The position numbers were made by a program, and so were the translations under genes. A DNA stretch of 64,000 bases from Minisyncoccota bacterium (GTDB lineage: Bacteria; Patescibacteriota; Minisyncoccia; Phycocordibacterales; UBA9973). The notes below the pieces were generated by a model, which worked only from the letters and a program-made list of their open reading frames with translations, did no database searches and had not been told where the DNA came from. The stretch spans positions 185,216-249,215 of the forward strand of contig JBAZKU010000001.1 in NCBI GenBank assembly GCA_041650615.1, in the 5' to 3' direction. This document shows, one piece after another, positions 1,487-49,971 of the stretch (its first letter is position 1; the number at the start of each line of letters is the position of its first letter).

Positions 1487-1487
1487 G

Positions 1488-1560
1488 TGGGCGTGGTAGG
1501 AATCGGACCTACGGCCTCTGTCTTATCAGGACAGCGTTCTACCACTGAACTACACGCCCT
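1488..1560 (-). tRNA. tRNA-Ile (anticodon GAT)
   Basis: Reverse complement GGGCGTGTAGTTCAGTGGTAGAACGCTGTCCTGATAAGACAGAGGCCGTAGGTTCGATTCCTACCACGCCCA. Cloverleaf with anticodon loop CTGATAA. Confidence 0.9.
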
Positions 1561-1567
1561 TATAAAC

Positions 1568-1622
1568 TCGCAGGACAGCATTCGGACTTTATCCGCCTCT
1601 GGCGGAACTGAACTACATGCCC
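1568..1622 (-). pseudogene. truncated 5' copy of tRNA-Ile immediately upstream of the intact gene
   Basis: Minus strand GGGCATGTAGTTCAGT..CTGTCCTG matches the tRNA-Ile acceptor, D-arm and anticodon-stem 5' side. It carries a TCCGCCAGAGGCGGA hairpin insert and has no 3' half. Confidence 0.6.
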
Positions 1623-1696
1623 GAAATCTACACGACCCAATAAAAATATAACAAAAATAGTAATTTTACGCAAATTGCAAAAATTAAAGAACAATA

Positions 1697-2374: not shown

Positions 2375-3343
2375 TTATTCTTCTTCATCCCCTGTTTCTC
2401 CAGATTGGAGAGCGTTAATTATATCTTCTATTCCCCCTTCCATTATTTTCGGCAAATTGTGCCAAGATTTTTTGATGCGGTGATCAGTGACCCGGTCTTG
2501 TGAAAAATTATAAGTACGGATTTTTTCGGAGCGGTCGCCGGTACCTATTTGGTCCTTGCGAGTACCAGCATATTTTTTTGCTTCTTTTTCTTCTTCTAAC
2601 TGTTGAAGTTTAGCGGTTAAAATCATCATTGCTTTTTCGCGGTTGGCAAGCTGGCTTCTTTCATTTGTGGAACGCACATCAAGTCCCGTTGGTTTATGAA
2701 TAAGCCGAACAGCGGTTTCTACTTTATTTACATTCTGTCCGCCTTTTCCTCCAGAACGAGAATATTCCATTTCTATATCGGCTGGATTTATTTCAAATAA
2801 AACTTTTTTGCGAATAGGGAGGACAGCTACAGACGCAGTAGAAGTATGCACTCTACCATTTTTTTCCGTCGCCGGAATTCTTTGCACTCTATGCACACCT
2901 GTTTCATAACGCATCAATTTATAAACATCTTTGCCTTTTATTTCAAAACTGGCTTCTTTATATCCGCCCAATTCACTTTTAGATTCATAATTTGTTTTCC
3001 ATTGCCAACCTTTTATAATAGAAAATAATTCATACATATGCGCCAGTTCCCAAGCAAAAAGCGAAGCCTCATCTCCTCCGGCGCCAGCTCGTACCTCTAA
3101 CACTATCTCATTCGCCATTTCTTCTTCCTCTATATCTTTATCTAAAATATCTTGAATTTGTTTTTCCGTCGTTTCTCTTTGTTCTTGAATAGATTTTAAT
3201 TCTCCGTCCACCATTTCTTTCAAAGAAATATCTTTTGCCAGCATCTCTCGCACTTCAACTTCTTCTTTATTCAAGCGCTCTAAAATACCCGCTAAATAGC
3301 TTGTATTGTGATTTTTTTTTAATTCATCTAGATCAAAGTTCAT
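2375..3343 (-). CDS. prfA: peptide chain release factor 1
   Basis: GGQ motif ([24 protein letters not shown]) and the RF1-specific PAT tripeptide ([14 protein letters not shown]). Confidence 0.9.
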
Positions 3344-6950: not shown

Positions 6951-8426
6951 TTATTTTAGCAATTTTTTCAGTGTTTCAATAACAATTTGCGGATTCGCGC
7001 TACCCTTGCTTTCTTTTATAACTTTTCCAACTAGAGACATTATAGCATTTTCTTTGCCAGCTTTATATACGGCAACAACTTCAGAGTTTTCTGAAATTAC
7101 TTTCTCCACGACAGCTTTAATTACACTTTCATCGTTTTTCTGCAATAAACCTTTTTCTGTAGCAATTTTGAGTGGAGACTCATTTTTTAATACAATTATC
7201 GCTAAAATATCTTTCGTTACTCGAGATGAAATTTTACCCTCGGCAGCAAGATTTATCAGTTCGGCAAAGTTTTCAGCATTCGGACGTTGGACGTCTGAAT
7301 TATTCTTTTTAAGACCTAAGTAATCAGAAGTAATGTAATTAGAAGCAAGTTTTACTTTCTCTTGTTCTTTTAAAATTTCAGATACTTCTTCAAACCATTG
7401 ACCCAATTCTTTATCATTAATGTAACTTTCTATATCCTCATCTTTAATTCCAAAATCTTTTTTATATCTCGCGCGTTTTTCTGCCGGTAGTTCCGGTAAT
7501 TCTTCTTTTATTTTTTTCAAATCAAAAGCTTCGTGTAAATACATTTTGGGTAAATCCGGTTCCGGGAAATACCTATAATCATGACTTGATTCTTTTTTTC
7601 TTTGAGAAAATGTTTTTTGCTTCCCATCGTCCCATCCCCTGGTTTCCTGCACTATTTCGTTTTCTTTTCCATCCTCCAAAAGTTTTACCATTCTATCCAA
7701 TTCAAATTTAATCGCTTTTTCAACACTCTTAAACGAATTTAAATTTTTCACTTCTACCTTCGTACCCAATTTATTTTTATCTTCCGAAACTGAAATGTTT
7801 GCTTCCACTCTCATCTCGCCTTTTTCCATATTCGCTTCGGACACTTCTAGATACCAAAGGATAAGCTGTAATTCTTTGGCAAAATCGGATGTGGTTTTAG
7901 CGGCGCTTTCTGCATCATCAAAACTATGAGGCTCAGTAACAAGTTCCATTAATGGCACACCTGCACGATTAAAATCAACAAGAGAATAACCATTTTCCCA
8001 CATGTCAGACATGTGAGTTTCCACATGTCTGACATGTGGGAAATCTATATGTTTATTATTAGCTGTGTCTTCTTCTAAATGAATACGAGTAATGTCAAAA
8101 TCAGCCAATTTTCCGCCGAAAACTATCGGATATTTATATTGTGAAATCTGAAAGCCTTTTGGGATGTCAGGGTAAAAATAATTTTTGCGATCAAATTCGG
8201 TAAAATCCGCAATTTTTCCACCAATAGCCAATCCAACTTTTATGACATTTTCTATCGCTTTTTTATTGATTACCGGCAAAGCCCCTGGGTGAGCCATACA
8301 AACAGGACAAATATTTACATTCGGTTTTTCTTCGTCTGGGTCATTCTTACAATCACAAAACATTTTCGTCTGCGTTTTCAACTCCGCATGTACTTCCAAA
8401 CCAATTGTTGGGTAATACTTACTCAT
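6951..8426 (-). CDS. gatB: Asp-tRNA(Asn)/Glu-tRNA(Gln) amidotransferase subunit B
   Basis: GLEVHAEL, FCDC..CPVC, GYSLVDFNRAGVPLMELV, and a C-terminal GatB/YqeY domain. Contains an in-frame perfect hairpin insert at 7998..8040. Confidence 0.9.
   Translation of the reverse strand: MSKYYPTIGLEVHAELKTQTKMFCDCKNDPDEEKPNVNICPVCMAHPGALPVINKKAIENVIKVGLAIGGKIADFTEFDRKNYFYPDIPKGFQISQYKYPIVFGGKLADFDITRIHLEEDTANNKHIDFPHVRHVETHMSDMWENGYSLVDFNRAGVPLMELVTEPHSFDDAESAAKTTSDFAKELQLILWYLEVSEANMEKGEMRVEANISVSEDKNKLGTKVEVKNLNSFKSVEKAIKFELDRMVKLLEDGKENEIVQETRGWDDGKQKTFSQRKKESSHDYRYFPEPDLPKMYLHEAFDLKKIKEELPELPAEKRARYKKDFGIKDEDIESYINDKELGQWFEEVSEILKEQEKVKLASNYITSDYLGLKKNNSDVQRPNAENFAELINLAAEGKISSRVTKDILAIIVLKNESPLKIATEKGLLQKNDESVIKAVVEKVISENSEVVAVYKAGKENAIMSLVGKVIKESKGSANPQIVIETLKKLLK
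7998..8040. repeat. 43-nt perfect hairpin (two 19-nt arms of cccacatgtcagacatgtg around a 5-nt loop) in frame inside gatB
   Basis: Arms are exact reverse complements, and each arm is also internally palindromic. Encodes about HVRHVETHMSDMWE, which is absent from typical GatB. Confidence 0.8.
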
Positions 8427-13943: not shown

Positions 13944-14017
13944 GGCCCTATCGTCTAACGGCTAGGACGTATCCTTCTCAAGGATAAAATCAGAGTCCGA
14001 TTCTCTGTAGGGTCACA
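13944..14017 (+). tRNA. tRNA-Glu (anticodon CTC)
   Basis: GGCCCTATCGTCTAACGGCTAGGACGTATCCTTCTCAAGGATA..TAGGGTCACA with anticodon loop TTCTCAA. Confidence 0.85.
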
Positions 14018-14227
14018 AAACGCGCAAAGCAAATAAACTGCTTTATTTGCGGGCGATTTGTGAAGGCACAGGCATAATTTTTGAGTACAAAAATTGCCGA
14101 GCCGGGGTCGCGAACACTTACGTATTTTATGATGGTGAGCTTGCCGAATCAGAAATAAAATACTTAGTGATTTGTGACCACATAAACTTAGAATGCGAAG
14201 CATATCAATTTTTGTTATAATTTAAAC

Positions 14228-14800
14228 ATGAAAAACGCCATACTTTTACATGGAAGTTCTTCTACCCCAAATTCTTTTTGGCTACCTTCTATTAAAAAAT
14301 TTTTAGAAGAAAAGGGTTATAGCGTTTGGGCTCCTCAACTTCCATTTCCGGAAGCACCTGATTTAAAAAATCAACTACCTTTTATTTTAAACAATGCAAC
14401 TTTTAATAACGAAACTATAATCATTGGCCACTCTTCTGGTTGCCCATTAATTTTGAGTATTTTAGAAAAGATAAATGTAAAAATTAATAAAGCAATTTTA
14501 GTTGCAGGTTTTGCAAGACTGCTTAGAAAAATGGAAGATAATTCTTTAAAAAAATTAGAGAAAGATGCAGAACCAATATTGCAGAAAACTTATGATTGGG
14601 AAAAAATTAAAAACAATGTTCAAGATATTGTTTTTATAAATTCAGAAAACGATCCATGGGGATGTAATGACAATGAAGGGAAATACATGCAGGAACACTT
14701 GGGAGGAAAACTTATAATAAACAAAGAAGGTCATATGGGGTCAGAAAAATTCAATCAACCATACAAGAATTTTCCACTTCTCGAACAATTATTGTCTTAA
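14228..14800 (+). CDS. RBBP9/YdeN-like serine hydrolase (alpha/beta fold)
   Basis: About 190 aa, with LLHGSSSTP and GHSSGC nucleophile-elbow motifs. Confidence 0.7.
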   Translation: MKNAILLHGSSSTPNSFWLPSIKKFLEEKGYSVWAPQLPFPEAPDLKNQLPFILNNATFNNETIIIGHSSGCPLILSILEKINVKINKAILVAGFARLLRKMEDNSLKKLEKDAEPILQKTYDWEKIKNNVQDIVFINSENDPWGCNDNEGKYMQEHLGGKLIINKEGHMGSEKFNQPYKNFPLLEQLLS

Positions 14801-15124: not shown

Positions 15125-15289
15125 ATGGAATATATAACTAGTTCCCCGAACTTTAAAAAGTCCAAAAAGAATTATGTAATGGGTTATGAACTATCCAGCA
15201 GGACAAAAAGAATTTTACTTTCTTTGTTTACTGCAATAGTTATCGTAATCATTGGGACAATCTTTAGTATTGTCCTTAATGTTCATTAA
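15125..15289 (+). CDS. small membrane peptide (54 aa) with basic N-terminus and C-terminal TM
   Basis: SD AGGAG 8 nt upstream of the ATG. Internal start of track ORF 15062..15289. Followed by a terminator. Confidence 0.45.
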   Translation: MEYITSSPNFKKSKKNYVMGYELSSRTKRILLSLFTAIVIVIIGTIFSIVLNVH

Positions 15290-15350
15290 ATTTTCTTCAG
15301 TAACAAACCCCCACTTCAAAATCCCACCTTTCACTTGGCGCGGCTCTCAA

Positions 15351-15380
15351 GGCGCAGATCATCAAGATCTGCGCTTTTTT
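15351..15380 (+). terminator. intrinsic terminator (convergent with the murF end)
   Basis: ggcgcagatc-atca-agatctgcgc followed by TTTTTT. Confidence 0.7.
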
Positions 15381-16713
15381 ATTTCTTCTCCAACCACTCC
15401 TTATCTTGGCGAACGAGAAGCTCTGATTTTTTTTCTTTGTCAAAAAGTACAGCTTCTACTGCCCGTTCCATGCGCATACCCTGCGAACCTTTAATAAGTA
15501 TAAAATCATTTTTTTGAATAAAGGTTTTCAAGAACTCCCCTGCTTCCCGCGAATTTAAAAATTCAAAAATACCCGCCTTGACTCGCGAAGACTCATCAAC
15601 GCGAGGCAGGTTTTTTTTATTCATTCCTGCTTCCATTGCGCCTTCTTTTATTTTTTCTGCCCGAGGACCAACTGTAATAAGTATGTCAGCATTCTCTTTT
15701 GCAATTTTGCCAATATTTTTATGAGCTTCTTCCGTATGACGACCAAGTTCCAACATGTCACCTAAGACAGCGATTTTTCTCCCCGAACTTTTTAATTCTC
15801 CTAAAGTTTTAAGCGCAAATTCGCAAGCAAAAGGAGAAGAATTATAAGAATCATCTATTATTAAAGAATCATTTACTCCCTTCAAAAGGCGCATACGTCC
15901 AGGCGGAACATTGTAATTTTTAAGTTTATTAATGGCTGTCAACGTGTTTAATTTTAAACCGGAAGAAAGCGCAAGCGCTCCAAGAGATGCGTAAATGTGA
16001 TTTTTGCCGAATACTCCTTCAATAATAACCGGCAAACTGTTTCCTTCTTCATCTATTCTAAAAGTTAAACCTTCCGGTATTCCCTCTCTATTATATAAAA
16101 TACTGTCGCTTGAGCCTTTTATATCGGAACCTTCCTTAAAACCAAAAGTCACAATGCGATTCTTTGTTTTTTCCCTCATTTCAGAAACTATCTCATCGTC
16201 ATTATTTAATATTAAAAGTCCGTCTTTTTTAAGAGTTTTTATGAGTCCACTTTTTTCTTCTACAAGATGTTTGCGCGAATCAAAAAATTCAATATGTACG
16301 GGAGTTTCCCCTATGGCCGTAATTATAACCGCATCAGTTCTAAGCCATGAAGCAGTAGAACGCATATCGCCTGGTTTTCCGATACCTACTTCAAGCACCA
16401 ACCACTTGGGATATTTATGAGGCCAAATAAAAAGCCAAAACCCTTTTAAAATATTTGAAATCCATGTAAGGGGATTATTCCATCCGTTGGGAACACCTAA
16501 AATAGTGAGAGGTAATCCTATTTCACTGTTATAACTTTTTTCACTTTTACGAACATAGGAAATACCGGAAATCACGGCGAAAACCGCATCTTTCGTGGAA
16601 GTCTTGCCGACCGATCCCGTGATAGCAATAATCTTAGGCTTATACTTCCAAAGTACCAGTCGTGATTCTATTCTTAAAATATAAACTAAAGGTTTTTTGA
16701 TTGCAGTTCTCAT
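15379..16713 (-). CDS. murF: UDP-N-acetylmuramoyl-tripeptide--D-alanyl-D-alanine ligase
   Basis: ATP-binding ITGSVGKTSTK and Mur ligase central and C-terminal domains. Carries an in-frame GC-rich insert at 15572..15610. Confidence 0.9.
   Translation of the reverse strand: MRTAIKKPLVYILRIESRLVLWKYKPKIIAITGSVGKTSTKDAVFAVISGISYVRKSEKSYNSEIGLPLTILGVPNGWNNPLTWISNILKGFWLFIWPHKYPKWLVLEVGIGKPGDMRSTASWLRTDAVIITAIGETPVHIEFFDSRKHLVEEKSGLIKTLKKDGLLILNNDDEIVSEMREKTKNRIVTFGFKEGSDIKGSSDSILYNREGIPEGLTFRIDEEGNSLPVIIEGVFGKNHIYASLGALALSSGLKLNTLTAINKLKNYNVPPGRMRLLKGVNDSLIIDDSYNSSPFACEFALKTLGELKSSGRKIAVLGDMLELGRHTEEAHKNIGKIAKENADILITVGPRAEKIKEGAMEAGMNKKNLPRVDESSRVKAGIFEFLNSREAGEFLKTFIQKNDFILIKGSQGMRMERAVEAVLFDKEKKSELLVRQDKEWLEKK
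15572..15610. repeat. GC-rich repeat, family cccgcctWgact..gcgaggcagg, in frame in murF
   Basis: cccgccttgactcgcgaagactcatcaacgcgaggcagg. Encodes about NLPRVDESSRVKAG. Confidence 0.7.
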
Positions 16714-27998: not shown

Positions 27999-28132
27999 AT
28001 GAGAGGAATATATGCTGACTTCATTTTTTCTTTTTTATTGGTTAATGTCTTTTTTTCGACGCTACCGAAAAAAATCAAAGGAGTAATTATTAAAAAACCT
28101 CGCGCAATGCACGGGGTTTTTATTTTTGTACT

Positions 28133-28152
28133 TGTGACCCTACCGGGAATCG
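28133..28152 (-). repeat. exact 20-nt duplicate of the tRNA-Glu(TTC) 3' end (T-loop 3' half plus acceptor)
   Basis: tgtgaccctaccgggaatcg is identical to 28300..28319, about 150 nt downstream of the intact tRNA. Confidence 0.8.
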
Positions 28153-28299
28153 CGAGTACGCTTTCGGTCACAAATAATTTTCTGCTGAAAATTTTCGCGA
28201 CCCCGCCTCGGATTCGACAATCCTGCGGCTTTCGATTCTCTCCGTAAGGAGATCACTGGCGATCAAAAATAATTAGCAAAAGCTAAATATTTTAGCTCG

Positions 28300-28373
28300 T
28301 GTGACCCTACCGGGAATCGAACCCGAATTACCGGCTTGAAAAGCCGATGTCCTAACCGTTAGACGATAGGGCC
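28300..28373 (-). tRNA. tRNA-Glu (anticodon TTC)
   Basis: Reverse complement GGCCCTATCGTCTAACGGTTAGGACATCGGCTTTTCAAGCCGGTAATTCGGGTTCGATTCCCGGTAGGGTCACA. Confidence 0.85.
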
Positions 28374-28410
28374 AAAGAAAACTTATGAAAACAACAAATT
28401 GCAATCTCTT

Positions 28411-28467
28411 TCGGCTTTTCAAAAAGCCGATGTCTGCTATATTCTAACTTGGTTAGACGATAGGGCC
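28411..28467 (-). pseudogene. degenerate 5' half of a tRNA-Glu-like gene upstream of the intact tRNA-Glu
   Basis: Minus strand GGCCCTATCGTCTAACCAAGTTAGAAT..ATCGGCTTTTTGAAAAGCCGA. Acceptor and D-arm are conserved; the anticodon region is replaced by a 9-bp hairpin; no T-arm. Confidence 0.55.
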
Positions 28468-28528
28468 ATTGCATCTCATAATATATTATTTTTGAAAAAA
28501 TCGCAAAAAATGTTAGATTACAAGGGAT

Positions 28529-29794: not shown

Positions 29795-30544
29795 ATGGAA
29801 AACACACAAATAATAATATTAGCCGGAGGAAAAGGGGTTCGCATGAAATCTGATGAACCGAAGGCACTTGTAATGCTCAAAAATAAACCGCTTATAAAGC
29901 ACATTCTTGATACCATTTCCAGTTTGCACTTATCAATCCGACCAATTATCGTAATAGGCCATATGAAAGAGCGCATGAGGGAAGTGTTGGGAAATGACCA
30001 TTTATATGCAGTACAAGATAAACCATTGGGAACCGGACATGCTGTCGCATCAGCTAAGGATAGTGTTCATCCGAACCATAAAACAGTATTGGTGCTATCT
30101 TCAGACCAACCCCTCATTTCAAAAGAAACTATTGAGCGTTTATTAAAAAAACACAACGAAAAAAAGCCGACTATAACCATAGCCACAGTGCTTGTCCCGG
30201 ACTTTGAGGAGTGGAGGTCTGCTTTGAGACATTTTGGTAGGATAATACGTGGAAATGACGGATCAGTGGAAGGTATTATTGAATTCAAAGACGCCACAGA
30301 AAAAGAAAAACTCATAAAAGAACTTAACCCGGCTGTGTATGCCTTTGATTCAGATTGGCTTTGGAAGAATATCAATTTAATAAAAAATGAAAATATGCAA
30401 GGTGAATATTATTTGACCGACCTTATAAAAATGGCTCGTAATCAAAATAAAAAAATTGAAGCAGTGCCAGTGGCAAACCTTATTGAAGGGCTTCAGCCCA
30501 ATACCAGAGAAGAACTTGAAATATTGGAGAAATTAAATACATAA
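29795..30544 (+). CDS. sugar-phosphate nucleotidyltransferase (GlmU N-terminal-like)
   Basis: ILAGGKGVRMKS..KAL NTP-transferase signature; no acetyltransferase domain. Confidence 0.75.
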   Translation: MENTQIIILAGGKGVRMKSDEPKALVMLKNKPLIKHILDTISSLHLSIRPIIVIGHMKERMREVLGNDHLYAVQDKPLGTGHAVASAKDSVHPNHKTVLVLSSDQPLISKETIERLLKKHNEKKPTITIATVLVPDFEEWRSALRHFGRIIRGNDGSVEGIIEFKDATEKEKLIKELNPAVYAFDSDWLWKNINLIKNENMQGEYYLTDLIKMARNQNKKIEAVPVANLIEGLQPNTREELEILEKLNT

Positions 30545-30549
30545 ATTAT

Positions 30550-30577
30550 GCGCGGTTAGCTCAGTTGTAGCGACGCC
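30550..30577 (+). pseudogene. truncated 5' copy (28 nt) of tRNA-Val, 46 nt upstream of the intact gene
   Basis: gcgcggttagctcagttgtagcgacgcc versus gcgcggttagctcagttggtagagcgaccc. A TATAAT-like box lies between the copy and the gene. Confidence 0.65.
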
Positions 30578-30622
30578 TGAAATACGTAGTAAATATAATT
30601 TGTATGATATCATAAAATCAAT

Positions 30623-30695
30623 GCGCGGTTAGCTCAGTTGGTAGAGCGACCCCTTGACGTGGGGTAGGCCACAGGTTCAAGTCCTGTATCGCGCA
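30623..30695 (+). tRNA. tRNA-Val (anticodon GAC)
   Basis: GCGCGGTTAGCTCAGTTGGTAGAGCGACCCCTTGACGTGGGGTAGGCCACAGGTTCAAGTCCTGTATCGCGCA. The tsaD ATG starts 2 nt after the tRNA 3' end. Confidence 0.9.
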
Positions 30696-30696
30696 C

Positions 30697-31842
30697 ATGA
30701 AAATCTTAAGCATTGAAACATCCTGCGATGACACAGGAATAACTTTGATGGAGGCAAAAGGAAGAGTAAATAATGCTTCTTTTAAAATCTTGGATAATGT
30801 CTCAAATTCGCAAATAAAAATCCATGCGGAATATGGCGGAGTATATCCGATGCTTGCAAAACGAGAACATATAAAAAATTTACCGATACTTTTAGAACAA
30901 GTACTTAAAAAGACTAAGCTTGATAAAAAGAAAAAGCCAGTGGATTTAATAGCTGTAACTTATGGACCGGGATTAGAACCAGCACTTTGGACAGGAATAG
31001 TTTTCGCCAAAGAACTGGCAAAAAAGTGGAATATACCGCTTATACCAGTGAATCATATGGAAGGACATATCCTATCGGCATTTGGAAAACACAAAGGAAA
31101 CTTTAAAATCCCCAAAATGGATTTTCCGGTACTATCTCTCCTTGTTTCCGGCGGACACACGGAACTTGTGCTCATAAAAAAATGGATGCAATATAAAATT
31201 ATCGGCGAAACATTGGATGATGCAGCCGGAGAAGCTTTTGATAAGGTAGCTAGGATGATGGGTTTCCCCTATCCCGGCGGACCAAAAATTTCAGAGTTGG
31301 CAGAAAAAGGGAGGGAGAAAATAGTTTTTAAAGGGACTCCGCAGGGCGACGGCCCGAGGACCGAGCAAATTTTTCAGCAGAGAAATTGCGACCCTTTAAA
31401 AATTGATTTTCTTCCTCCCTTTCTCCCCCGCCCGATGATTTACAGTAAAAATTTTGATTTTTCTTTTTCGGGACTGAAAACCGCCGTGCTTTATTTAATT
31501 AAAAAAATCGAGAAATTGAACGAGGAAACCAAAGAAAAAATCGCTTTGGAATTTGAAAATGCAGTAGTAGAAACTCTTGTCTATAAAACAATAAAGGCAA
31601 AAGAAAAATACAAGGTAAAAACTATCATTGTGGCCGGCGGGGTTTCTTGCAATAAGCACTTGCAAAAACAAATGAAAAAAACTATTGGCAAAGATATTGA
31701 ACTTTTTTTCCCGGAAAAAGAACTAACGGGAGATAATTCAATAATGGTAGGCATAGCCGGATATTTGAATTATCAAAAAAATAAAAATAAAATTCTTAAA
31801 ATAGACGTTATAAAGGCAAAAGGTAATTTACGCTTTAAATAG
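30697..31842 (+). CDS. tsaD: tRNA N6-adenosine threonylcarbamoyltransferase TsaD, with a ~31-aa in-frame insertion
   Basis: MKILSIETSCDDT.. and HMEGH metal motif. The insertion KGTPQGDGPRTEQIFQQRNCDPLKIDFLPPF lies before the conserved LPRPM..DFSFSGLKT. Confidence 0.85.
   Translation: MKILSIETSCDDTGITLMEAKGRVNNASFKILDNVSNSQIKIHAEYGGVYPMLAKREHIKNLPILLEQVLKKTKLDKKKKPVDLIAVTYGPGLEPALWTGIVFAKELAKKWNIPLIPVNHMEGHILSAFGKHKGNFKIPKMDFPVLSLLVSGGHTELVLIKKWMQYKIIGETLDDAAGEAFDKVARMMGFPYPGGPKISELAEKGREKIVFKGTPQGDGPRTEQIFQQRNCDPLKIDFLPPFLPRPMIYSKNFDFSFSGLKTAVLYLIKKIEKLNEETKEKIALEFENAVVETLVYKTIKAKEKYKVKTIIVAGGVSCNKHLQKQMKKTIGKDIELFFPEKELTGDNSIMVGIAGYLNYQKNKNKILKIDVIKAKGNLRFK
31326..31422. repeat. GC-rich insertion in tsaD, related to the gactccgagggcg core family, with flanking ttttaaaggg/ccctttaaaa inverted repeat
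   Basis: ggactccgcagggcgacggcccgagg resembles the cores at 9513..9559 and 54223..54273. Followed by a pyrimidine tract. Confidence 0.5.
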
Positions 31843-47778: not shown

Positions 47779-49971
47779 TTATTGTTCTTTTTTAGTATTA
47801 TTTTTATCAGAAGTAATGGCAGAGGTAGCATTAGAACTTCCACTCTTTAAAGAATTAACATACTGCACTATGTCTTTATTGTCGGGGGCAAGAGATAAAG
47901 CCTCTTCTGCGTAAGCAAGAGCATTAGTATTGTTGCCATTGCTTTTCTCTATCTGAGAAATTGCAATTAAGGCATCTATATAATCGGGCTTCAAAGTAAG
48001 AGCCTCTTTCACAGAATTTTTTGCATCATTTACTTTTCCATTGGCAAAAAATACACGTGCCATGGCAAGTTTTATTCCAGGATTTAATGGATTAAGAGTT
48101 GAGGCTGTTTCATATGCCTCAATCGCTTTTTCAAAGGAATCTTCTATCCCCAATAAGGCAATTGTACTATACACAGTTCCTAAGGAGTCGTAATTTAAAT
48201 AATTTGTATTATTGTATGCCACCGCCAGTTGTGCGCCATTTATCGCTTGGCTAAAACTTGCTTGCAAATTAGCTTTATCTGTTTCAGTCAAAGAAGACCC
48301 TTTAGTAGATATAGAATTAATCTTTGCAAGGTAAACTTGCGCATAAGTGCGTAAATATAAATCGTTTTGATATAGCGAAACGGCTTTATTGATGGAATCT
48401 TCAGCTATGGGAATAGTAGAAGCAGAAAGTGTTTTTCCAAAATATATGACAGAGGCTAATCGTTCTATATATTTTACTCCGGCAGCGATAGAAGCAATCA
48501 TTATTACCACCAGGAAAAGTATGGAGAAAAAACTTTTTCTAGGGTCATCCAAAAACGAAAATGACATTTCTTTATTGAGATGACTGGAAGAAGATAAGCC
48601 TATAAACACTCCAGTGAAAGCAAAAGCCAATAAAAATATAACCCCACCCGTAGAATAGAAGAAAGATGCAGCAAACAAATAAAGGGACGCTACAAAGAAT
48701 ACCACCACTTCCCAATTTGTGTTGTTTTTAATACTAAAAAAAATAGATTTTATACCGGCAATTATAAATAAAACAAAAAACACAAGCCAAGCCAGGATAC
48801 CTAAATATCCGGTAGTGGAAGCAAAGGTTGGCAATAATCCCGAACCAGAATCAAAAGAAGCATTCCAAAATTGAGTAGAATTAATGACTTGAGGTTTATA
48901 CATTGCCCATACTTCTCCAAATTTATTCGGACCTGCACCTAGAATCGGATTTTTAATAAGAACATCTTTTGTCACTGACATTGTAGCTCCAAAAGAAGGC
49001 CTAATCTCAATATTTGACAAGCCTAAGCGATCCGGTAAAAATCCTCCGATAAATTGACTGGACATAAAAAACAAAAGTGAAAATAAAACTATAACGAAAG
49101 AAAACATCGGAAAACGTTTTTTCATTCCTTCTACTTCTATCTCTTCGGCAGGCAAGCTTTCTTGTCCGAGAGGCAGACGTTTTCCGCCAAAAGAAAAAGA
49201 GACTTTATAAACAAAAATAATTAAAGCAAAAATTCCAAGAAGTTCCCAAACTAACGGAAAATTCACCGCCACAGCCAGTATAATTGAAAATGTAATTAAA
49301 ATTCCCAGTAGCCATTTGGCTGTTTTTGAGATAGAAAAAAATTCAATTATAAAAAGGGGCATAATGACAGAAAAACCGGCAAAGAGTCCGAATGAATTCC
49401 AAGACCCCAAAATATTATCGGTCTTTCCACTTAAAACTCCTAACGACAAAAATTCAGGTATAAAAAAACGAAAAGTCTGAAATATAAACAAAATAGCAGA
49501 AGATAAAATTAGGCCTAAAAAAACTGCCATAGCTTTTCTTTTATCTTTTAAAACAATAGAAGAAATCAACATCAAAAGAATAGCTCCTAGCATAAAATAA
49601 AAAGTGCCAATATCAAACATTGTGCCAAAAAGAGATACTTTCAAAGCCGAGGAAAATAAAGCAGAAGCAAGAAACACTAAGAGAATTCCGAAAACAGAAA
49701 ACAAGAGCCAAGATTTTGGTAAATTAATCTTTCCATCTAAAAATCGAGCTGCTATCCAAGAAACTATTGAAATAACCAAACCTACCACTAAAAGCAAACC
49801 TTTTGAAGTTTCAGTCGGAATTTGAGTGAAAGGCAGAAAGAAAATCGGTAATAACACTATCACTGTAAAAAGCGACCAAAAAGAGATTCTATCTAAAATA
49901 TTTGATAACATATTATTTTCGCTCAAGGCGAATCCGCCCATGGCGGAAAGAATATTAATAAAAACTTTCAA
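47779..49971 (-). CDS. O-antigen ligase-like polytopic membrane protein with C-terminal TPR repeats
   Basis: About 12 TM segments followed by about 5 TPR-like repeats. Confidence 0.55.
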   Translation of the reverse strand: MKVFINILSAMGGFALSENNMLSNILDRISFWSLFTVIVLLPIFFLPFTQIPTETSKGLLLVVGLVISIVSWIAARFLDGKINLPKSWLLFSVFGILLVFLASALFSSALKVSLFGTMFDIGTFYFMLGAILLMLISSIVLKDKRKAMAVFLGLILSSAILFIFQTFRFFIPEFLSLGVLSGKTDNILGSWNSFGLFAGFSVIMPLFIIEFFSISKTAKWLLGILITFSIILAVAVNFPLVWELLGIFALIIFVYKVSFSFGGKRLPLGQESLPAEEIEVEGMKKRFPMFSFVIVLFSLLFFMSSQFIGGFLPDRLGLSNIEIRPSFGATMSVTKDVLIKNPILGAGPNKFGEVWAMYKPQVINSTQFWNASFDSGSGLLPTFASTTGYLGILAWLVFFVLFIIAGIKSIFFSIKNNTNWEVVVFFVASLYLFAASFFYSTGGVIFLLAFAFTGVFIGLSSSSHLNKEMSFSFLDDPRKSFFSILFLVVIMIASIAAGVKYIERLASVIYFGKTLSASTIPIAEDSINKAVSLYQNDLYLRTYAQVYLAKINSISTKGSSLTETDKANLQASFSQAINGAQLAVAYNNTNYLNYDSLGTVYSTIALLGIEDSFEKAIEAYETASTLNPLNPGIKLAMARVFFANGKVNDAKNSVKEALTLKPDYIDALIAISQIEKSNGNNTNALAYAEEALSLAPDNKDIVQYVNSLKSGSSNATSAITSDKNNTKKEQ

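Follow-up and report, generated by a model that had tools for sequence, protein, structure and literature searches.

In this study, truncated tRNA gene copies lying beside three intact tRNA genes, tRNA-Ile(GAT), tRNA-Glu(TTC) and tRNA-Val(GAC), were investigated in a 64-kb stretch of contig JBAZKU010000001.1 (the window, meaning the whole of this stretch). With moderate confidence, we consider that small local rearrangements at tRNA genes left these copies behind as relics without function, and our verdict is that they are ordinary relics in unusual abundance. One further repeat, a copy of the 3' end of tRNA-Glu(TTC), forms the far edge of a trailer element that is conserved and folded, here called type B. 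The window has a G+C content of 36%, its closest TsaD relatives are Nomurabacteria/Paceibacteria metagenome-assembled genomes (74% identity), and it belongs to a Paceibacterota (Patescibacteria) genome. A metagenome-assembled genome labelled Candidatus Paceibacterota has an AtpB protein identical to that of the window.

Eight tRNAs were called in the window by ARAGORN and Rfam. Each was locally aligned to its own 400-nt flanks, and the scores were compared with those of shuffled flanks. Same-strand upstream copies of the tRNA 5' part were observed at three of them, Ile, Glu(TTC) and Val, where the flank copies scored 4.5 to 15.7 standard deviations (sd) above the shuffles; the same alignment gave no flank copy at the remaining five. 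Nucleotides 1-16 of tRNA-Ile recur with 15 of 16 matches (score 27; shuffles 15.6 on average, sd 2.4), nt 1-42 of tRNA-Glu with a score of 48 (shuffles 15.0, sd 1.9) and nt 1-32 of tRNA-Val with a score of 42 (shuffles 14.6, sd 2.2). The upstream partial copies begin at tRNA position +1 and stop in or near the anticodon loop, at about nt 33-38 in Ile, about nt 32-40 in Val and nt 42-48 in Glu. They are degenerate, with indels and also a hairpin insertion, and when the check with ARAGORN proposed in the initial annotation was run, with Rfam added, the intact tRNAs were called and the partial copies were not. The coordinates given there were broadly right and are refined here to 1571-1622, 28412-28467 and 30550-30578, the last being the firm extent of the Val partial, which arguably reaches 30586.

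Over 621 nt at Glu and 152 nt at Val, the ENA and JGI assemblies match the window at 100% identity, and the Logan contig does so over its reach, 271 nt of Glu and 124 nt of Val. At Ile, the entire arrangement is present in the ENA contig, the JGI contig begins within the partial copy, and the Logan contig begins within the tRNA, so that the partial copy is not covered. Since the other assemblies are identical at these loci, an assembly artefact and polymorphism within the population are excluded. The truncated copies first reported beside the three tRNAs are real and far above chance. Three short-read contigs of the same species break within the repeated tRNA segments (L104 begins at tRNA-Ile nt 19, L230 ends in tRNA-Glu and L233 ends in tRNA-Val), and these ends look like assembly breaks caused by the repeats.

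Comparison with relatives was based on 105 related loci (handles of the form L002), 94 of them around tsaD, from genomes and metagenomes, and the others around atpB. Flank copies were counted over 149 non-redundant tRNA loci, with the expectation taken from shuffles. An upstream direct copy was present at 11 of 146 tRNA loci (about 7%) against 0.4 expected, and a downstream copy at 9 of 148 (about 6%) against 0.2 expected. The spacings of the copies in relatives range from 41 to 134 nt, and the tRNAs concerned are Val, Phe, Ser, Glu, Arg and Gly. Because the copies stand far above the shuffle expectation, at several tRNAs and with many spacings, we regard them as products of a recurrent process of the clade and not as three coincidences.

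The individual fragments are unevenly shared, and the expectation that copies would be found in relatives held for Glu and Val only. Homologues of the Glu fragment occur in L013 and L061 with the same 94-96 nt spacing and the same fragment-specific D-arm rearrangement, so that the fragment is found at three of 13 tRNA-Glu(TTC) loci and the other ten are without it. The Val fragment itself was found only in the window and L001, which have the junction GACGCC|TGAAATACG in common; most relatives' Val loci lack it, and elsewhere other Val fragments of different period occur. Both the Glu and the Val event are old, as relatives share them. None of the five relatives examined (L095, L097, L098, L100 and L102) has the larger Ile fragment, which therefore appears specific to this species. 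Empty sites were observed in L002 for Glu and in L095 for Ile. The many Glu(TTC) and Val loci without a fragment show that the fragments are dispensable.

Promoters, leaders and the origin of the 5' fragments

The initial annotation had placed a promoter-like region between each fragment and its intact gene, which did not hold for Glu and Ile and is unclear for Val. At tRNA-Glu, the promoter scan gave a single minus-strand promoter-like site, 28506..28478, upstream of the partial copy, and none from fragment to gene. The motif is kept upstream of tRNA-Glu(TTC) in most relatives, and an identical 36-nt promoter/leader abuts the intact tRNA-Glu in L002 and runs into the partial copy in the window. 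At tRNA-Ile, a 16-nt copy at 1623-1638, GGGTCGTGTAGATTTC, had been missed. It is common to L095, with a variant in L097, and directly precedes the intact tRNA-Ile in both: in L095 the promoter and the same 16-nt leader stand directly before the gene, and in L097 the promoter and a diverged leader occupy the same position. The window thus has the L095-like promoter and leader, 63 extra nt, and then the gene. The Ile promoter-like site, which is kept in L095 and L097 and present as a variant in L102, lies under the threshold of the promoter scan. At tRNA-Val, a TATAAT does lie between copy and gene, without a -35 element, and a shared TTGAAA motif lies upstream of the partial; this -35 is kept in L001-L004, and the -10 is degraded in the window. 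An idea formed by eye, that the promoter belongs to a duplicated Val/Glu unit, was dropped after a shuffle test pointed to chance similarity of AT-rich sequence.

Since the relatives' promoter lies upstream of the Glu and Ile fragments, at the site of the intact gene, these fragments are probably pre-tRNA leader. Judging from sequence comparison, the 5' fragments are most likely part of a transcribed leader, and RNase P would remove them from the pre-tRNA.

The relic explanation proposes that tRNA flanks are hot spots for small rearrangements in the Paceibacterota lineage. Partial head-to-tail duplications, or one-sided illegitimate recombination, would have left the working gene intact and placed a fragment beside the host promoter where the relatives' intact gene sits, in Ile after the short older leader copy. 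The fragment would then be transcribed within a longer pre-tRNA leader and discarded by the RNase P cut at the 5' end of the intact tRNA. Under no constraint, the fragments would then decay, through indels, stems turned into perfect hairpins and, in Ile, insertion of a mini-hairpin. Repeated tandem duplication and decay, as suggested earlier, is the best fit for the 5' partials, in that the copies are adjacent, head-to-tail and degenerate. A clean tandem unit, taking in 12 nt of leader, was detected at tRNA-Val of L051, with a marginal similarity of spacer and upstream flank (shuffle P = 0.018).

The state of the fragments can be followed in Glu and Ile. The Glu fragment forms two hairpins, in which tRNA stems are extended into perfect palindromes; multi-base changes in L013 perfect the first hairpin, and L061 does not keep the hairpins. 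Template switching at quasi-palindromes yields such hairpin-perfecting multi-base changes without selection. In the Ile partial, the block AATGCTGTCCTG resembles tRNA nt 22-33 (matched by eye), and the hairpin insert noticed at the outset is present as TCCGCCAGAGGCGGATAAA. This mini-hairpin was also found in a tRNA-Ser pseudo-fragment of L061 (0 of 5000 shuffles match), in-frame within tsaD of L082 and in two IMG/VR contigs, and it belongs to a dispersed family of GC-rich hairpins. A derivation of the insert from the 3' half of tRNA-Ile was rejected, the similarity not being significant (P = 0.10). GC-rich mini-hairpins of the TCCGCCnnnGGCGGA kind also occur in coding regions, at 49933-49947 of the window near the N-terminus of a 730-aa open reading frame (ORF), and at 2150-2177 of L082, where two of them in tandem lie in-frame in tsaD and encode SARGGSALGG. 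Further ones were observed in L061 (429-442, in the pseudo-tRNA fragment), L226 and L227.

Several observations weigh against relics of simple duplication. Similarity between spacer and upstream flank is not significant for the window Val (P = 0.74) and Glu (P = 0.48) copies, nor is it for L061 (P = 0.61), and it is marginal for L013 Glu (P = 0.05), so a simple tandem duplication of leader plus 5' half is not demonstrated for the window Val and Glu. A 19-nt block of the Glu fragment, TAACCAAGTTAGAATATAG, is identical in L013, although the TsaD identity to L013 is no more than 66% and the spacers cannot be aligned; constraint, gene conversion or transfer may lie behind this. Moreover, Val and Phe fragments in five genomes have the same derived D-loop variant, GCTGTTTTGGTAG. 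Lastly, the predicted fold of leader plus tRNA-Glu pairs the 5' strand of the fragment with the 3' strand of the real tRNA, and the fragment may therefore not be neutral. As to the D-loop variant itself, it reads GCTGTTTT(G/A)GTAG(G)TA in place of GCTCAGTTGGTAGAGC and occurs in L040, L049 and L051 (Val) and in L010 and L013 (Phe); the fragments that carry it differ in spacing, and L040 is very distant (TsaD 40% identical).

The tRNA-Glu trailer element and its relatives

The exact 20-nt copy of the tRNA-Glu 3' end was confirmed 148 nt downstream of the gene; its nt 55-73 score 38 against 15.7 (sd 2.3) for shuffles. The intervening DNA had been taken for the place of a lost or remnant integrated element. 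That reading is not supported: these 148 nt are a conserved structured element that stands behind tRNAs in many relatives. At Glu, the type B element measures about 110 bases and borders the 3' copy. A profile search of 1.2 Mb recovered 14 non-redundant copies. They follow a tRNA of the same strand at a distance of 11-228 nt, the farther ones being second units of tandem arrays, except for copies at the edge of a locus and a single copy whose tRNA is gone.

In an alignment of 11 type B sequences, the proportion of paired cells is 93.4%, that of shuffles being 78.8%; both sides have changed in ten pairs, none of 500 shuffles was as good, and slid controls were paired at most 52%. The G-U pairs fall on the tRNA-sense strand. 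In the core, P1 has the form G-N-C/G-N'-C with a GGA/GA internal loop, P3 is GGTC/GACC, and hairpin 2 is AT-rich. Rfam 15 gave no match to the element, only tRNAs at gathering score in the window and eight loci, and by E-value, with three element copies, again tRNAs only, sub-threshold matches being inconsistent or absent. H/ACA-like, box C/D-like, kink-turn, hammerhead and signal recognition particle RNAs were considered by eye for the core, and none fits the covarying pairs. No literature on such elements in the Candidate Phyla Radiation (CPR) or Patescibacteria was found.

The fullest copies consist of the tRNA, a terminator, an inverted copy (X') of the tRNA's own 3' end, GAAAG, the core, a direct copy (X) and a terminator. 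X' is often split by a CTGC-loop hairpin, and X-term-X'-core-X-term-X' arrays are also found. Inverted copies of tRNA 3' ends were detected at seven loci against 0.2 expected. The X' and X repeats of type B, and of the type A elements described below, derive from the adjacent tRNA, and both types resemble miniature inverted-repeat transposable elements in being short and multi-copy, with terminal inverted and flanking direct repeats. X' and X decay without compensation in the window and L019, and the core is conserved. An assignment of the window's inverted copy to an L020-type tRNA-Glu was not used, as the difference is only 1-2 bases. A second full tRNA copy as the source of the inverted repeat was likewise rejected: L020 reads GTGACCCTA, in which the 3' strand, together with the discriminator, is reverse-complemented, and not the 5' strand GGCCCTA. 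The type B data fit a host-encoded structured trailer RNA, the surroundings of which grew by terminator palindrome extension and tandem duplication; they also fit a miniature integrative element, in which a circle (X-term-X'-core) recombined with X.

The second type B element of the window, behind tRNA-Glu(CTC), comprises a CTGC-loop hairpin (14029-14050), the core and the end GTGACCACATAAAC, with no direct 3' copy, and its first 27 nt (AAAACGCGCAAAGCAAATAAACTGCTT) are identical to the tRNA-Glu(TTC) trailer of L002. When viral contigs were searched with a loose type B pattern, the matches were mostly due to chance and L113 alone was real; a stricter pattern gave none. L113 is a GC-richer contig, labelled viral in IMG/VR yet with housekeeping genes, and the flanks of its type B tandem array (2880-3319, minus strand) carry a tRNA 3' end (CAAATCCCTCCCTCTCCG) in inverted and in direct orientation. 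On account of this array, the type B family extends beyond AT-rich Nomurabacteria-like genomes.

Two related kinds of element were observed. Type A has a different core in the same overall layout and follows tRNA-Arg, Val, Ser and Phe in four genomes; its order is a CTGC-loop hairpin, an inverted copy of the tRNA T-arm, GAAAG, a CTTTTC/GAAAAG stem, ACC, a small hairpin with covariation and, last, the tRNA 3' end in direct copy. Type C, likewise conserved, interrupts tRNA-Ser(CGA) behind nt 12, so that nt 1-12 are present twice, and is a 5' mirror image of the 3' trailer elements. The positions of all features are collected in Table 1.

Table 1. Positions of the tRNA genes, partial copies, promoter-like sites and trailer elements in the window, and of type A and type C elements in related loci
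Feature	Position	Strand	Called by
Intact tRNA-Ile(GAT)	1487..1559	-	ARAGORN, Rfam
Spacer CGAGTTTATAA, 11 nt, from Ile partial copy to intact gene	1560..1570	-	
Ile partial copy B: tRNA nt 1-16 (GGGCATGTAGTTCAGT), 24-nt insert, then AATGCTGTCCTG	1571..1622	-	
GC-rich mini-hairpin TCCGCCAGAGGCGGATAAA, at D-loop position of Ile partial B	1588..1606	-	
Older 16-nt 5' partial copy or leader GGGTCGTGTAGATTTC	1623..1638	-	
Promoter-like TTGCGT-17-TATATT, upstream of both Ile partial copies	1645..1673	-	
Second type B element, directly after tRNA-Glu(CTC) (13944-14016)	14017..14187	+	
Intrinsic-terminator-like hairpin and T-run, just downstream of Glu 3' copy	28092..28126	-	
Exact direct copy of tRNA-Glu nt 55-73 and next base (T-loop to 3' end)	28133..28152	-	
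Type B core: P1, hairpin 1, P3, hairpin 2, linker GAAAGCGTACTCG	28153..28228	-	
Degenerate inverted copy of tRNA-Glu 3' end (GTGATCTCCTTACGGAGAGAATCGAAAG), 5' edge of type B element	28229..28256	-	
Weak AT-rich hairpin directly after tRNA-Glu	28280..28298	-	
Intact tRNA-Glu(TTC)	28301..28373	-	ARAGORN, Rfam
AT-rich spacer, 38 nt, from Glu partial to gene; no same-strand promoter-like site called	28374..28411	-	
Glu 5' partial: nt 1-16, inverted ~nt 5-16 (hairpin), then anticodon-arm-like perfect hairpin	28412..28467	-	
Conserved tRNA-Glu promoter TTGCGA-17-TATTAT, upstream of partial copy	28478..28506	-	
Promoter region TTGAAA-18-CATAAA, within 3' end of upstream gene	30516..30546	+	
Val 5' partial: tRNA nt 1-32, 3-nt deletion, running into CCTGAAATACG	30550..30586	+	
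AT-rich spacer with TATAAT (30594-30599), no -35	30587..30622	+	
Intact tRNA-Val(GAC)	30623..30696	+	ARAGORN, Rfam
Type A elements	L010 6565-6674; L049 774-891; L061 666-820; L019 downstream of tRNA-Phe 14422-14495		
Type C elements, ~122-130 nt, CTGC-loop hairpin first	L055 ~7320-7453; L061 ~440-577	L055 -; L061 +	

With reference to the surrounding genes, the Ile locus is neighboured by an RRM protein, an AtpI-like ORF and atpB, and the Glu and Val loci by thioredoxin-reductase-like, GtrA-like and NTP-transferase genes, tsaD and valS. Two of the tRNAs directly abut a coding sequence, and both junctions lack a spacer as well as a Shine-Dalgarno sequence. The 3' end of tRNA-Ile (1487) abuts the ATG (1486) of an 87-aa ATPase_gene1/AtpI-like ORF, a junction kept in L097, and the 3' end of tRNA-Val (30696) abuts the ATG of tsaD at 30697, a junction kept in L002, L003, L005 and L006. 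These arrangements suggest co-transcription, in which tRNA 3' processing may yield a leaderless mRNA, and can be likened to the tRNA punctuation of mitochondria.

Alternative explanations

The first alternative is that the segments between the repeats, above all types A, B and C, are miniature integrative elements. Such tiny gene-less elements would insert at the T-loop (or the D-arm) of a tRNA gene and bring along a copy of the tRNA end with which the gene is restored. We hold this as a tentative possibility, improbable on balance. By analogy with known hairpin recombination, the route proposed is possibly a folded single-stranded circle (X-terminator-X'-core), the X:X' stem of which would mimic a duplex target, with a recombinase acting in trans; the truncated tRNA copies would be footprints, and 28133-28152 would be the displaced original 3' end of tRNA-Glu. 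What speaks for it is the full architecture, which the window Glu shares with L063 Val-TAC (X' and X both perfect over 19 nt), L018 Phe, L020 Glu, L010 Arg, L049 Val, L061 Ser and L019 Phe. The same cores stand at different tRNAs, each with matching X' and X, and there is the excess of inverted copies given above. A circle integrating into X would also give the observed arrays. Presence varies at the orthologous site, since an element follows tRNA-Val in L014, L020, L049 and L061, and tRNA-Val abuts tsaD in the window and in the four relatives that keep this junction, and uncompensated decay of X' and X around a covarying core fits insertion footprints around a functional core. Nevertheless, no recombinase is linked to the elements, and neither a free or circular form nor an empty/filled polymorphism within the species (three other assemblies) was observed. 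Across genomes, the copies found at one and the same locus look like orthologues, as vertical inheritance would have it, and the layout is also obtainable if template switching enlarges the terminator palindrome and a tandem duplication comes after it. Moreover, no conserved core is present in the 5' spacers of Ile, Val and Glu (11-44 nt). The wider claim, that types A and B (perhaps also type C and the 5' spacers) are undescribed gene-less miniature integrative elements of Patescibacteria targeting tRNA ends, is in our opinion more doubtful still.

Next, the fragments could be functional tRNA-like leaders that recruit or titrate RNase P, tune maturation or act as decoys for tRNA-binding factors; recruitment of RNase P by such leaders had been raised in the initial annotation. 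The fragments lie downstream of conserved promoters and are so probably transcribed, the Glu-fragment block is common to the window and L013, where the changes perfect a hairpin, the D-loop variant common to Val and Phe fragments suggests convergence, and, in the folding model, the fragment may pair with the 3' strand of the real tRNA. On the other side, most relatives have no such fragment at the orthologous locus, the Ile fragment is broken by a dispersed mini-hairpin, tRNA models do not recognise the fragments, and template switching can account for perfected hairpins. The leaders have no shared fold, and the three Glu leaders fold differently from one another, their hairpins being lost in L061; the energy z-scores (-1.2, -3.7 and -1.1 in these Glu leaders, -1.7 in the Ile leader and +1.1 in the Val leader) are insignificant except for that of L013. 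A functional leader is therefore unlikely to us, and its RNase P-recruiting form found no support in the fold or the distribution.

Partial tRNA copies are textbook att-site scars of integrated elements, and fragments of tRNA genes at the ends of such elements are reportedly described by Reiter (1989) and Williams (2002). The attL/attR footprint read into the Glu locus would accordingly be the trace of a phage or island that entered the tRNA and was later almost wholly deleted, which we consider very unlikely. The extent of the repeats fits it, the Glu 3' copy spanning the T-loop to the tRNA end as att repeats usually do (van der Gulik et al. 2022) and the 5' copies starting at +1. A real small cargo does occur in L004, where a GIY-YIG ORF lies between tRNA-Phe and a 37-nt 3' copy. 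However, no integrase, recombinase, phage or cargo gene was detected near the three loci, where Pfam gave housekeeping neighbours; the repeats are only 11-148 nt apart, and the ORFs between them are spurious, with no remnant of an integrase or cargo. The 148 nt behind tRNA-Glu are a conserved structured element and not decayed island DNA, the 5' fragments lie beside a host promoter with only a short spacer, each of the over 15 independent cases known from relatives is tiny, and no full-length element bounded by these repeats was found in the 105 related loci. Documented att copies of tRNAs bound elements of 9-23 kb (van der Gulik et al. 2022, 10.1101/2022.07.05.498093). With the defining cargo and integrase absent, the fragments are therefore not filed as att scars.

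The L004 locus (~15270-15744, minus strand), with its 395-nt insert, is of separate interest. Its small GIY-YIG (URI-type) ORF separates the intact tRNA-Phe from a displaced copy of nt 37-73, the degenerate upstream part of which has a GC hairpin (CCCCGCCCATTACGGGCGGGG) in the anticodon loop, and from its layout it looks like a homing-endonuclease-like insertion that rebuilt the tRNA.

Lastly, chance similarity or an assembly artefact has a negligible probability, for although the short-read contigs break in the repeated segments, the scores far exceed the shuffles, other assemblies, including long contigs, are identical, and homologous fragments exist in other genomes.

Known systems and significance

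The relics and the trailer elements resemble several known systems in part. As in attL/attR systems, a partial direct tRNA copy stands beside an intact one, with a 3' copy that covers the tRNA from the T-loop onwards; unlike them, there is neither integrase nor cargo, the copies are close together, most are 5' fragments by a host promoter, and a conserved structured element lies between tRNA-Glu and its 3' copy. The pseudo-tRNAs of animal mitochondria likewise arise in compact genomes by head-to-tail duplication and decay of one copy, and this is the nearest analogue of the process that may have formed the 5' fragments. Here, however, the units of 41-134 nt are sub-genic, in most cases with tRNA +1 as their first base, and the window Val and Glu have no significant homology between spacer and upstream flank.

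Small palindromic mobile elements come nearest to the trailer elements, and in a formal sense so do folded single-strand recombination sites. Rickettsia palindromic elements, REPINs and the GC clusters of yeast mitochondria are small palindromic elements of AT-rich compact genomes. Similarly, the GC-rich TCCGCCnnnGGCGGA hairpins are scattered between genes and in-frame within them, and types A and B are multi-copy, hairpin-rich and about 100-170 nt long. In contrast to those families, types A and B occur only directly 3' of tRNA genes, their terminal repeats are derived from the tRNA, and no transposase is linked to them. The attP hairpin of CTXphi (used by XerCD) and integron attC sites are alike in that the X/X' fold could mimic a duplex target and the order X-loop-X'-rest-X matches strand exchange with such a hairpin; the likeness is purely formal, as no recombinase, circle or dif-/attI-like site was identified, and the target is a tRNA 3' end. 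Small RNAs from the 3' external transcribed spacers of tRNAs, such as 3'ETS-leuZ of E. coli, are comparable in that the structured RNA is encoded directly 3' of a tRNA and could be set free by tRNA processing; in difference to them, several copies here lie beyond a strong terminator, and there is no sequence relation and no Rfam match.

As partial copies occur at about 6-7% of the tRNA loci of the clade with no island, the rule of thumb that takes such copies as island markers would mislead here. The fragments probably lengthen the pre-tRNA leaders of single-copy essential tRNAs and would thus be a natural test of how much junk RNase P tolerates. The trailer elements, with their inverted and direct repeats derived from the target, are the part that deserves pursuit. 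Type B may be a small RNA of a new kind that goes with tRNA operons, or else a new sort of minimal mobile element that takes its inverted repeats from the target; either would give useful access to the poorly known non-coding and mobile DNA of Patescibacteria.

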